A DNA stretch of 61,986 nt, counting the filler, from Globobulimina sp. (lineage: Eukaryota), in NCBI GenBank assembly GCA_003354225.1. It is 20 parts of 20 records of this genome, joined end to end, with 100 filler letters (N's around TTAATTAATTAA, not from the genome) between each part and the next. Parts side by side here need not be neighbours in the genome. Positions count along the whole stretch, not along the records: positions 58,985 to 61,986 come from PIVH01004068.1; 19 more parts are not named here. One strand, written 5' to 3'. Of this stretch, positions 58,885 through 61,986 are shown piece by piece (the first letter of the stretch is position 1; every line of letters starts with the position of its first letter). Below the pieces are notes generated by a model. That model searched no databases and was not told the DNA's origin. It was given only the letters and a program-made list of their open reading frames with translations. Both the position numbers and the translations under genes were made by a program.

Positions 58885-58984
58885 NNNNNNNNNNNNNNNN
58901 NNNNNNNNNNNNNNNNNNNNNNNNNNNNTTAATTAATTAANNNNNNNNNNNNNNNNNNNNNNNNNNNNNNNNNNNNNNNNNNNN

Positions 58985-60882
58985 CAATGCGATCTCATTC
59001 TTTTTTTTAATCGCAATCATCAGCGACGTATCATATTTATATTGAAAATTTAAATCCGCGCCGGACCGAATTAATTCCAACACGCGGGCACCGCTAAAAT
59101 CTGACGATGGTTTCTTGATTTCTAACATTAATTCAATCGCTAATTTCCTCCGCTTCTCATAGCTGATATAACAGCCAATTCTGCCGCGACCATTGCATTT
59201 TGCCAAACGACAGGCTTGGCGGCATTCATTTATCCACGACGATATAGACACGTTATTGTTGTTAGTGGCTTTGCTTTTGCCTTTATTGAACATGGAGATG
59301 CCCGCACATAATGTGACCGGGCCCAATTTCTGCGTAGCTACGTTTGACGAGACCTTATTTAATACCTTCTTTATAATCCTCCGTAGCTCAGACTCGTTGG
59401 CTACGCTCGCGAGTATAGCAAACTCACCAAACCCAAAATGTGTGGCATTGATCTCTTTGGAGATACTCATCAACAAAATATCCTGCACCACGCCAACCAC
59501 ACTCTCCCCCTTCTTGCTGCCACTCCAAAATAATAAGTATGGATCCATGTTCGTTGCGCCTACAGCCAAATAATTGCCTTCTTTGTCATTGGAATGCTCA
59601 TTCTCTTCTTTTTTCTGTTCATTGTATTCTTGCAGCTCTTCCACCTCTTTTTGCCGTAATAACAGCGACGATTTCCTGCGTTGTTTGTTAATGGCAGCGG
59701 TGCGTTCTGCCGCAGATTTTGGCTCTGCTTTGATTTTAGATAAACCATATTCGTCATCATCGTCTTCCTCGTCGCTGCTATCCATGTCATTGTTAGCTTG
59801 GGCTTTTTTGATCTGTGCCATGGATTTCGTAGATAGTAAGTCTTCATCATCGATATATTTCATCTCATGGTCGTCTTCTTTGTTGCTCGAGGATATGATG
59901 AGATTTTCAGTGGATAGCGGCGAGGCAGACATTGAGTCATCTTCTTCTTCCTCGTCCTCCTCCTCTTCATCTTCATCGTCGTCCTGATGGTCCTCCTCGT
60001 CGTTGTCATCTATTTTTTGCTGTGGCGGCAATGATCGATGTTTCTTGTGCGTTTTTTTCAATCTTTTGGTCTTTGCTTTGGTGGAGGCAGAGGGCGAATT
60101 GATGGCTGCGGGACTTTTCTTTTTTACGTTTGGGTTTTGTTTTTGTAATGGACTTTGAATGTGTCCTCGTAAATTGTCAATATCTAAAATGGCGAGACCG
60201 AAACGCGAGATATTTTTGGTTGATTCAGACTCCATTTCTGTAATCTGTGTGGATGCAAGCCGGTATATGCGAATTTGCGATGTAATATAGGCGGTTTGTT
60301 GTAGATATATATAAGATATTTAACTCTGTATAACAGATTTACAAATGATTCAGGCGGATAAAAATTCGATGGTAATTTGTTGGCATTATTTGGTGATTGG
60401 GGCTGATGATTGGTACTAGTTTTGGGTGAATTTGCGTTTATATCATTAATATAGGACTCTCTGCCAATTAACAAAGACCTTTTTCTTCTTTTTTGATATT
60501 TTGTGGATGAAGCTATAGTAACACTTATTTTTGGTGAATGGTTTGAGAGTGCGCGCGAATGTGTGGGTGTGATTGTATGGGTATTGTCCATTGCCATTGA
60601 ATGTGAATGTGAGTGTGATGAATGTGACTGTCGCATATTTCTATCAATAGAGGCCCTCCGCGCAGATTGATATTTTCTTGCACCCGATGCTGATTTCGCA
60701 TTATTATCAATTGTTGAGACAGTCGATGCGCGATATGAACGAGCCGACGAATGCGTAGATGATTTATCAATGCCTGTAAATCCATTCATGGTTTGTTTCA
60801 TTGAGGATTGGAAATTTTTGCCCATTGAGCGGAACTTATTTCCCCATTGCTGGTTTCGATTTTGTTGTTGATTGTTTGCCAT
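58985..60882 (-). CDS. Degenerate GGDEF-domain plus ankyrin-repeat protein (intron ending at 60245; 3'-partial)
   Basis: FGLAILDIDNL ... HFGFGEFAIL ... VTLCAGIS ... ACRLAKCNGRGR, then LIRSGADLN...TSLMIAI. Confidence 0.75.
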
Positions 60883-61026
60883 GGTTTGAAAAAAAGAGTT
60901 TTTTGTTTTAGTTGAAGGATATCAGTGTGTTTTTTAGTTTAGAAAAAAAACCATACGCAAAAACAGTGTTATATGCTATATAATATAATTCTATTACTTT
61001 CTATACTAACTAAAAATAACAGTTGT

Positions 61027-61530
61027 TTAATCATCAAAAAAGAAACCAATTTCCCTCTGAGCAGAATCATAGGAATCAGATCCATGAACAGCATTCTGAG
61101 TGATATTTGTTCCATAAACAGATCTGAGTGATTTGGGTGACTCTCTTTTCGCATCCTTGGGATTTGTTGCTCCCATAATATCTCTCCATGATTTCACTGC
61201 ATTTTGGCTTTCTAACATCAGTGCCCATAATGGTCCTGATATATTATTAAATATATGTATGAATGAATGATGTGTAATAAATTTCTATCAATTTCTAAAA
61301 AATTAAACAAAATCTATTTTCTACCTGAAGTGATATGGCTTATTAGTTCCTGAAAGAATGGTTTTCCTTTATGTTCGCAATAAAATAAAGAGGCCTGTTC
61401 CTGTGTCAACGTAATTCGTCGCGATTTAATGATTTCAAATCCGTTATCCAATATTTCTTTCATTATTTCATCAGAGTGACTAAACGCGTCTGGTTTTATG
61501 AATGCAAAAGTACGTTCAACATCACCATCA
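61027..61530 (-). CDS. Nucleoside diphosphate kinase domain (intron 61236-61324; 5' exons unresolved)
   Basis: ERTFAFIKPDA, FY.EHKGKPFF, TS|GP, SLRSVYGT, NAVHGSDS and AQREIGFFF motifs. Confidence 0.92.
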
Positions 61531-61986
61531 CTTTTGTTTTTTTCTATATTTTATCATATTAGATTTGGATAGATCTTGTTTTAACTTTTGTTCCTTTTTT
61601 TTGTTATAGAGGTAATATATTGTTACTGCACCAACCACAGCAGCAGTGACAACAGCTCCAACGACCAATTTATTTTTCTTAAGTTCGTCCATCAATGACC
61701 CAGGCGGATCTTTATTAGCTGCAATGGTGTCGGCTAGTGTTTCGACGTAAACTGGGATAAAAACTTAGAATAAAAATAAAACGTTTTTTAACAGCTGGTT
61801 TTAACGTTTACTTTTTTGTCAAACAGATTGAGCACATTATTATAATAAATTGATATTATTTGGGTGTGGATGCATTTTCCTTTGCTTTCTATACCTTTAC
61901 GCCAGCATTATAGACCCGCGATCTATTAACTTCTATAACATTCACTTGTTGTCTTGTAAAATCAATGACACTTAGCAAAACCCCAA

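Follow-up and report, generated by a model that had tools for sequence, protein, structure and literature searches.

A degenerate GGDEF domain interrupted by a long insert in a spliced ankyrin-repeat protein of foraminifera

Background

Bacterial GGDEF diguanylate cyclases (PF00990), among them PleD (1w25), Dcsbis (4zmm), SadC (4wxo), and WspR (3bre), make cyclic diguanylate (c-di-GMP). Non-catalytic GGDEF modules are also established in bacteria, and PMC7288161 describes CC3396 of Caulobacter as a GTP-sensing degenerate GGDEF and YybT of Bacillus as a degenerate GGDEF ATPase. The main characterised eukaryotic case is DgcA of Dictyostelium, a single gene per genome that makes c-di-GMP (PMC4686194), and a 2023 paper (PMC10399225) names Dictyostelium as the only eukaryote known to do so. 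GGDEF genes in other eukaryotic assemblies are usually ascribed to contamination according to PMC4931340, which gives transcription and presence in relatives as criteria for genuine transfer. Here we describe a gene of Globobulimina sp. (assembly GCA_003354225.1), one of the foraminifera, which are marine amoebae with shells, in a stretch of 61,986 nucleotides, filler included, which we call the window. The gene is spliced and eukaryotic, and we predict that it encodes a catalytically dead GGDEF domain that is split by a long insert and followed by ankyrin repeats.

The predicted protein shares the fold of the bacterial cyclases (138-139 aligned residues, Z 15.3-16.4, root-mean-square deviation (rmsd) 2.5-2.9 Å) and keeps equivalents of their D327, K442, and R446. 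It differs from them in having GFGEF as its motif, in the loss of E370, N335, and RxxD, in Glu at D344, in a 192-residue insert, in a eukaryotic gene with an intron, and in an ankyrin and coiled-coil tail that replaces the sensor domains. Non-catalytic use of the fold is a likeness to the degenerate bacterial proteins FimX (3hva, Z 15.2), LapD (3pjx, Z 14.0), and DosP (9bgv), but the split protein is without an EAL partner, the two guanine-reading residues, or an I-site, its domain is interrupted, and eukaryotic modules are attached. No adjacent EAL domain of the CC3396 type occurs in the full-length orthologs, where ankyrins follow. Like DgcA, the gene is a transcribed GGDEF gene of a eukaryote and common to relatives; unlike DgcA, its product is predicted from the sequence to be inactive and is split, and foraminifera have many GGDEF genes.

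A spliced gene with relatives across foraminifera

The window joins separate contigs of ~3 kb with spacers of the form N44-TTAATTAATTAA-N44; the window's other contigs are unrelated, and we did not draw on them for context. The gene lies on contig G000:C4068 (window positions 58985-61986) of a 70 Mb assembly in 48,370 contigs. It begins with an ATG at 60882 on the minus strand, and a frame change demands an intron. The coding part of exon 1 (60325..60882, minus strand, residues 1-186) encodes a low-complexity N-terminus with conserved RRxS (residue 75) and RKRS (residue 133) motifs, then the first GGDEF helix (PPESFVNLLYR). An 80-nt GT..AG intron (60245..60324, minus strand) falls inside the N-terminal half of the GGDEF domain (N-half). 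It is skipped exactly by one contig each in three of four runs (X2, X6, and X8, not X1), for which the type of run is a guess or has no record. Orthologs derived from transcriptomes continue across this same junction (NLLYR/ITEME). These two lines of evidence bear out the acceptor at 60245 and the donor at 60324 of the initial annotation, and its alternative donor at 60342 is dropped.

In exon 2 (58985..60244, minus strand, residues 187-606) the frame meets no stop before the contig runs out at 58985. Using the ortholog P0009 as query, we found the remainder of the gene on contig G000:C11362 (L098), which is 71% identical to P0009 and shares with the cut end an overlap of 12 residues in which a single base differs, giving a joined protein of ~1,096 residues. 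The 35 exon-2 differences (from 40 of 123 sequence differences, those listed) comprise 32 synonymous and 3 non-synonymous changes, two of the 3 in one insert codon, and therefore indicate purifying selection on what is a nuclear, spliced gene. With its spliced intron and its relatives in foraminifera, it is eukaryotic and not bacterial, as had been proposed from the sequence.

Eight proteins of 811 candidates match the C-terminal piece at 59-83% identity, in clusters that name Ammonia sp., Nonionella stella, Bolivina argentea, Rosalina sp., and Reticulomyxa filosa. The full-length orthologs have a common plan: a low-complexity N-terminus, the GGDEF N-half, the insert, a short conserved segment (segment B), the C-terminal half of the domain (C-half), ankyrins, a coiled coil, and PSKD(I/M)xL. 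Identity to the window protein is 90-94% over the N-half (four proteins that cover it whole), 40-46% over the insert, 62-76% over the C-half, and 70-77% over the ankyrins; segment B is 76-94% identical in close orthologs. More distant N-halves (53-79%) occur in metagenome proteins, and a scan of metagenome loci for relatives gave 592 pattern matches and no relatives. Judging from these alignments, the split design is conserved across foraminifera.

In the Reticulomyxa record a phosphatase fragment precedes segment B and the C-half, which are all that it holds of this family, and the split is not directly visible there. In this protein (P0008, ETO04438.1), named a Ser/Thr phosphatase, the last 120 residues are a C-half of the split family. 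The phosphatase label probably reflects a mis-joined gene model, the domain being found in no other ortholog. Insert length differs within one cluster, between P0003 and P0161 (188 and 216 residues) and between P0002 and P0160 (318 and 394 residues, due to an internal repeat); both pairs are isoforms or assembly variants.

Predicted architecture and fold

The N-half (60152..60375, minus strand, residues 170-217, spanning the intron) comprises helix 0, strand 1 with the D327 equivalent, and a short helix 1. Between helix 1 and helix 2 lies the insert (59576..60151, minus strand, residues 218-409, 192 residues), which is basic and then acidic, of low complexity (28% D/E, 15% hydrophobic), and mostly disordered, much as the initial annotation had described ~200 disordered residues after the first strand. 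Segment B (59525..59575, minus strand, residues 410-426, 17 residues, NYLAVGATNMDPYLLFW) precedes helix 2 and resembles a decayed second strand-1/helix-1. The C-half (59174..59524, minus strand, residues 427-543) contains helix 2 (with GE for GD), HFGFGEF (59440-59420), strand 4 (VTLCAG), and AKxNGRGR. The motifs listed from the sequence run in the order given for them, all on the minus strand and in one frame: RFGLAILDIDNL (60205-60170), HFGFGEFAIL (59440-59411), VTLCAGIS (59317-59294), RQACRLAK (59221-59198), and NGRGRIG (59194-59174).

Across seven orthologous proteins the insert is 188-394 residues long, and 40 of the 192 insert residues are invariant, clustered in islands: SASPLS, KYIDDxDL (KYIDDEDL in the window protein), and SAAERTAxINxQRR(K/R)SS. 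RR(K/R)SS is borne by a 40-residue helix (59594..59713, minus strand, residues 364-403; H178-217 of the AlphaFold model, block predicted local distance difference test (pLDDT) 79-95), which likewise appears in an ortholog model (H333-370). A profile of the orthologs that included the insert matched mostly acidic tracts and was set aside, and an ESM search with the insert and first ankyrins (0.82) found ankyrin only, at best a lead.

A linker helix and the start of the ankyrin array (58985..59173, minus strand) complete the contig. Pfam gave no ankyrin match on the cut piece (to 58985); the ankyrin repeats noted from the sequence are seen through the orthologs and contig G000:C11362, with Ank_2 matches at E 1e-27 to 4e-71 in five of eight homologs and the repeats in tandem. 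The whole protein has nine TALM-like motifs in the ankyrin array, then the coiled coil and PSKD(I/M)xL tail on the next contig. PSKD(I/M)(K/Q)L is kept after a variable tail (L098:3-1508, P0002-P0004, and P0009), which suggests a terminal binding or targeting motif.

On the natural sequence the Pfam GGDEF profile matches the C-half at E 5.3e-4 and 20.2 bits, below the gathering score of 23.8; it gives 16.7-22.4 bits in three of the eight orthologs and no match at E 0.1 in the other five. The insert lies inside the fold and so hides the protein from the Pfam cut-off. By alignment-free ESM features an ortholog C-half reaches 0.96, with 27 of 30 matches to GGDEF and no class III cyclase among the matches. 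A phmmer search of the C-half against PDB has a diguanylate cyclase as its best match, a weak one (E 0.64).

A hidden Markov model (HMM) of 200 bacterial GGDEF domains with the canonical motif gives the C-half of the window protein alone 30.4 bits; with the two halves joined the score reaches 45.8 bits, the best of 364 junctions (median 33.8). Shuffled N-halves reached at most 37.9 bits in 500 trials at the same junction and at most 39.3 bits in 100 trials with an equal best-of-364 choice; 45.8 was never reached. The joined halves of seven proteins score 45.8-51.1 bits, and hhalign gives 98.1% and E 6.6e-14 over 131 columns. On the insert-free form our HMM and hhalign support GGDEF, as expected in the initial annotation; Pfam was run on the natural sequence. 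The test HMM was built from proteins of a search of 50% representatives with a mixed profile (A2), in which the 17 examined out of 150 were bacterial-looking tandem GGDEF proteins, with no further eukaryotes. The 57 PDB matches of A2 that are GGDEF-type by name or family were not counted, being circular (its members were chosen by PF00990).

ESMFold2, run with no alignment on P0003 residues 144-196 and 379-514 (including segment B), scored 0.76 against 0.01 for the best of three controls; among 78 solved complexes 51 attain the mark used, as do 2 of 108 mismatched pairs (39 of 65 and 2 of 126 for eukaryotes). At least 84% of contacts agree between runs, and the partner pLDDT is at least 64. 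Residues 178-182 of P0003 are flanked by 432-437 on one side and 473-475 on the other, so that strand 1 sits between strands 3 and 4 as in GGDEF domains. Because two halves of a known fold may score well simply by resembling solved structures, this result shows compatibility of fold, not binding in the cell.

In the AlphaFold model of exon 2, whose alignment held 66 bacterial rows covering the C-half only and no strand-1 rows beyond the orthologs, the upstream segment forms a strand (E15-23, block pLDDT 81) and segment B has pLDDT 46-52. Segment B is not strand 1 in either the ESMFold2 or the AlphaFold model. Compared with known structures (VIA-align, model range 1-359), the top 32 rows are GGDEF domains (best Z 16.4, rmsd 2.5, 138 aligned); PleD matches at Z 15.3 with 139 aligned, over both halves, and Foldseek agrees (E 1e-7). 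The best non-GGDEF structure has Z 12.1. Class III adenylyl/guanylyl cyclases, with a related palm fold, lie below the 32 GGDEF entries at Z 10.2-11.7 and 10-12% identity, so the fold appears to be that of GGDEF and not of class III cyclases. Together the HMM gain, ESMFold2, AlphaFold, and the structure match strongly support the proposal that an insert splits the domain. We predict that the two halves fold into one domain, from which the insert of 200-400 residues projects as a loop after helix 1 and before helix 2. By alignment, the insert would sit at the edge of the former substrate site, beside the former guanine site.

The active site

We took residue roles from PMC7288161 and mapped them by HMM consensus; the spacings match the numbers of that paper. 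The metal ligand D327, E371, F372, and the phosphate-binding K442 and R446 are kept, with Arg for K332. Lost are E370 (Gly), G369 (Phe), the guanine-reading N335 (Ile), R366 (His), and RxxD, and D344, which also reads guanine, is Glu. The strand 1 sequence LDIDNLRGHIQSP, with the D327 equivalent, is present in 15 of 15 sequences that cover the site, and GFGEF, without the metal ligand E370, in 12 of 12 that cover the motif. The insert blurs the register of N335, and helix 1 has no Asn at that spacing. AKxNGRGR aligns in the comparison with the bacterial HMM and holds the K442 and R446 equivalents (K349 is invariant in 74 rows and R353 in at least 90%). His at R366 and two Cys near K442 are invariant. 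At the I-site, S/T stands at R359 and I at D362, and RxxD, which I-site c-di-GMP receptors of the PelD type have five residues before the motif, is absent from the nine residues preceding FGFGEF in all 12 sequences (0/12).

D327, N335, and D344 are named essential in PMC7288161, and cyclase activity is very unlikely because two of them, N335 and D344, are changed. The protein has lost the residues required for c-di-GMP synthesis and for c-di-GMP binding at the I-site. The suggestion of a catalytically altered domain is borne out by GFGEF and the loss of E370, N335, and RxxD. The accompanying claim of GTP or c-di-GMP binding is not: N335 is Ile, D344 is Glu, Phe replaces the second motif Gly, there is no RxxD, and only the triphosphate-side D327, K442, and R446 remain, which leaves guanine-specific binding unsupported.

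Possible function

We predict, with a probability of about 0.55, that the protein is a foraminiferal pseudo-enzyme scaffold of ~1,100 residues, composed of a dead GGDEF domain, a loop with phospho-motifs, ankyrins, and a coiled coil. The domain would derive from a bacterial-type diguanylate cyclase that changed fast and was then frozen, and may act as a rigid protein-binding platform; in a quick tree the split family has a stem of 4.29 changes per column and tips of 0-0.095. It is more conserved than its neighbours (90-94% identity in the N-half versus 70-77% in the ankyrins), which points to a conserved binding surface. The insert islands (RRxS, SP, and acidic-Tyr motifs, and one long helix) may be phosphorylation or docking sites that switch partner binding. 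The ankyrin array may hold a second partner, and the C-terminal coiled coil may dimerise the protein. Kinase signals would be relayed to the bound partner without a nucleotide messenger.

Several points weigh against the scaffold. Its partners and regulation are all things that we infer, and the kinase sites are putative ones assigned by consensus pattern, RRxS as basophilic, SP as proline-directed, and the third as an acidic Tyr site. D327, K442, R446, E371, and Arg at K332 are invariant, and a pure scaffold need not keep them. A first AlphaFold run, of full-length P0003 on eight close rows, was uninformative, with pLDDT below 50 in the GGDEF region. The 66 bacterial C-halves in the AlphaFold alignment make the C-half fold partly circular, unlike the ESM and ESMFold2 tests, which used no alignment, and the ESMFold2 passes may reflect likeness to solved GGDEF structures. 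The quick tree is unfinished and its long branches are unreliable.

It is possible, though somewhat unlikely, that the protein is a nucleotide sensor. In this reading, which is the earlier proposal minus c-di-GMP and is modelled on CC3396 acting on its EAL partner, D327, the helix-1 backbone, K442, and R446 would let the dead site hold a nucleoside triphosphate (NTP), or another polyphosphate, together with a single metal, and this binding would move the insert or the ankyrins. The phosphate-side residues are invariant in all orthologs covering them, GTP-sensing degenerate GGDEFs exist (PMC7288161), and a nucleoside diphosphate kinase (NDK) gene lies ~145 nt upstream, which may be chance. Yet N335 is lost, D344 is Glu, E370 is Gly, Phe stands at G369, and RxxD is absent, and K442 and R446 belong to the family's most conserved structural turn and may be kept for folding.

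We consider it distinctly unlikely that the protein regulates active cyclases. GGDEF enzymes work as dimers, so it is conceivable that the dead domain pairs with an intact paralog and inhibits or tunes c-di-GMP synthesis under control of a phosphorylated loop. The locus L010, an intron-bearing paralog, and its Bolivina relative P0165 keep D327, K332, N335, D344, R366, and GGDEF, and the genome has about ten eukaryote-type GGDEF loci. Against this, no eukaryote-looking EAL, HD-GYP, or PilZ gene was found in an exon-by-exon search, whose counts are lower bounds, and the quick tree places the split family apart from L010.

A new enzyme, with the palm fold re-tooled so that D327 and E371 hold a metal, for instance for NTP hydrolysis as in YybT of Bacillus, seems improbable. 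Beyond the YybT precedent (PMC7288161), D327, E371, the His at R366, and the two Cys near K442 are invariant, but Gly occupies the third motif position, where the canonical metal ligand would stand, and no other enzyme class lies near the GGDEFs (best non-GGDEF Z 12.1 versus 16.4).

Highly improbable is a contiguous domain in which segment B is strand 1 and the upstream LAILDID is left over from another, second domain. Segment B is well conserved in close orthologs (the 76-94% above), and MAFFT aligned bacterial strand 1 to it, a placement that we reject as a gap-penalty effect in view of the HMM, ESMFold2, and AlphaFold. Including segment B does not raise the HMM score (29.8 bits, against 30.4 when it is left out), whereas the upstream half adds 15; ESMFold2 with segment B present still places the upstream strand between strands 3 and 4; the AlphaFold block pLDDT is 81 for the upstream strand and 46-52 for segment B; and segment B has Gly, Pro, and Asp where strand 1 is buried.

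Bacterial contamination, an assembly chimera, or a pseudogene, conceivable in an assembly with bacterial diguanylate cyclase, EAL, and PilZ pieces, some joined to eukaryotic DNA, and given the warning in PMC4931340 that diguanylate cyclase genes are common contaminants, is refuted by a spliceosomal intron removed in three runs and relatives in five named foraminifera, with a synonymous excess and a long open frame besides.

Other GGDEF and c-di-GMP genes in the genome

PF00990 has 15 matches among 17 candidates in the genome. By eye, 11 are host-type, including the split gene, and the remaining four are bacterial (L001-L003, together with L007, which was judged by its neighbours). L010 (G000:C20767) has a 209-nt intron inside its GGDEF domain. 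Once spliced, it keeps D327, K332, N335, D344, R366, and GGDEF, and Lys occupies both the K442 and the R446 position. P0165, a Bolivina transcript protein 47% identical to L010, reads through the same intron point and carries PF00990, so database annotation of foraminiferal GGDEFs exists. Both have a Cys-rich N-terminal domain. L010/P0165 is the best candidate for a working foraminiferal diguanylate cyclase, as predicted from its residues.

Profile searches of the genome for EAL, HD-GYP, and PilZ, made exon by exon so that the counts are lower bounds, gave one, two, and five matches, bacterial by eye; two short HD_5 frames were not read directly. The assembly survey proposed earlier thus yielded an intact GGDEF (L010) and, within these lower bounds, no eukaryote-looking EAL, HD-GYP, or PilZ.

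The other foraminiferal GGDEFs (L004-L006, L008-L014, and P0165) share the fold and the genome with the split protein, and L013 also combines a degenerate GGDEF with an ankyrin-like region. They differ in that none is split among those examined over strand 1 to helix 2, and in that L010/P0165 keeps an active site. L013 matches P0003 at only E 0.003, over the ankyrin stretch, and a search of the genome with the C-half finds only itself. In a quick tree of 75 rows, the foraminiferal GGDEFs need two changes (71 of 500 shuffles are as low), which does not separate one origin from several.

Degenerate GGDEFs fused to other modules are seen by eye in L004:1381-2772, L006, L013, and L005, the modules being an MGN- start, SAM-like domains, an ankyrin-like region, and membrane helices. 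The host-type loci L006 (732-734) and L011 (1024-1026) have one in-frame TAG each, after strand 3, and between L008 and L009 the reading frame shifts immediately ahead of the motif; these may be pseudogenes, errors, or short introns. In L001, L017, and L106, eukaryote-looking DNA is joined to bacterial diguanylate cyclase, EAL, or PilZ pieces, probably by chimeric assembly with associated bacteria.

Neighbouring genes

The sole true neighbour on the contig is a three-exon NDK gene (61027..61692, minus strand) that ends ~145 nt before the ATG of the GGDEF gene. Its introns (61585-61531 and 61323-61235) agree with the intron-containing NDK noted initially, and its NAVHGSDS motif is intact. An N-terminal hydrophobic stretch (LVVGAVVTAAVVGAVTIYYLY), then basic residues, resembles a membrane anchor. 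There is no evidence that the NDK is part of the system. Beyond the artificial spacer (58885..58984, no strand), an open reading frame on the adjoining unrelated contig (57152-58885, plus strand) has at least five diverged ubiquitin-like domains and a Lys-rich tail.

Implications for foraminifera

Our search of the literature on GGDEF or c-di-GMP in foraminifera found no description of the split protein; most subscription journals were outside the search, and absence from print is not proven. The gene passes the tests for genuine transfer in PMC4931340, being spliced and present in relatives. The split protein is a real and unusual degenerate GGDEF, being eukaryotic, split, and strongly conserved.

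A wider picture, which we regard as unlikely, is that foraminifera have c-di-GMP signaling of their own, made up of active, intron-bearing L010/P0165-type cyclases and dead GGDEF regulators, and so join the dictyostelids as the second eukaryotic lineage to do so. In that case the split protein would be a control subunit built by eukaryotes, its kinase-regulated loop lying next to the old active site, and would sense nucleotides or pair with active cyclases. Such signaling hinges on the intact paralogs and their predicted active site, and these make c-di-GMP production by foraminifera directly askable. If the protein is only a scaffold, it would be a clear example of how pseudo-enzymes evolve, from a lineage that has received little study, and of moderate interest. 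A bacterial signaling domain appears to have been fully domesticated in foraminifera, with a long, regulatory-looking loop inside its fold.
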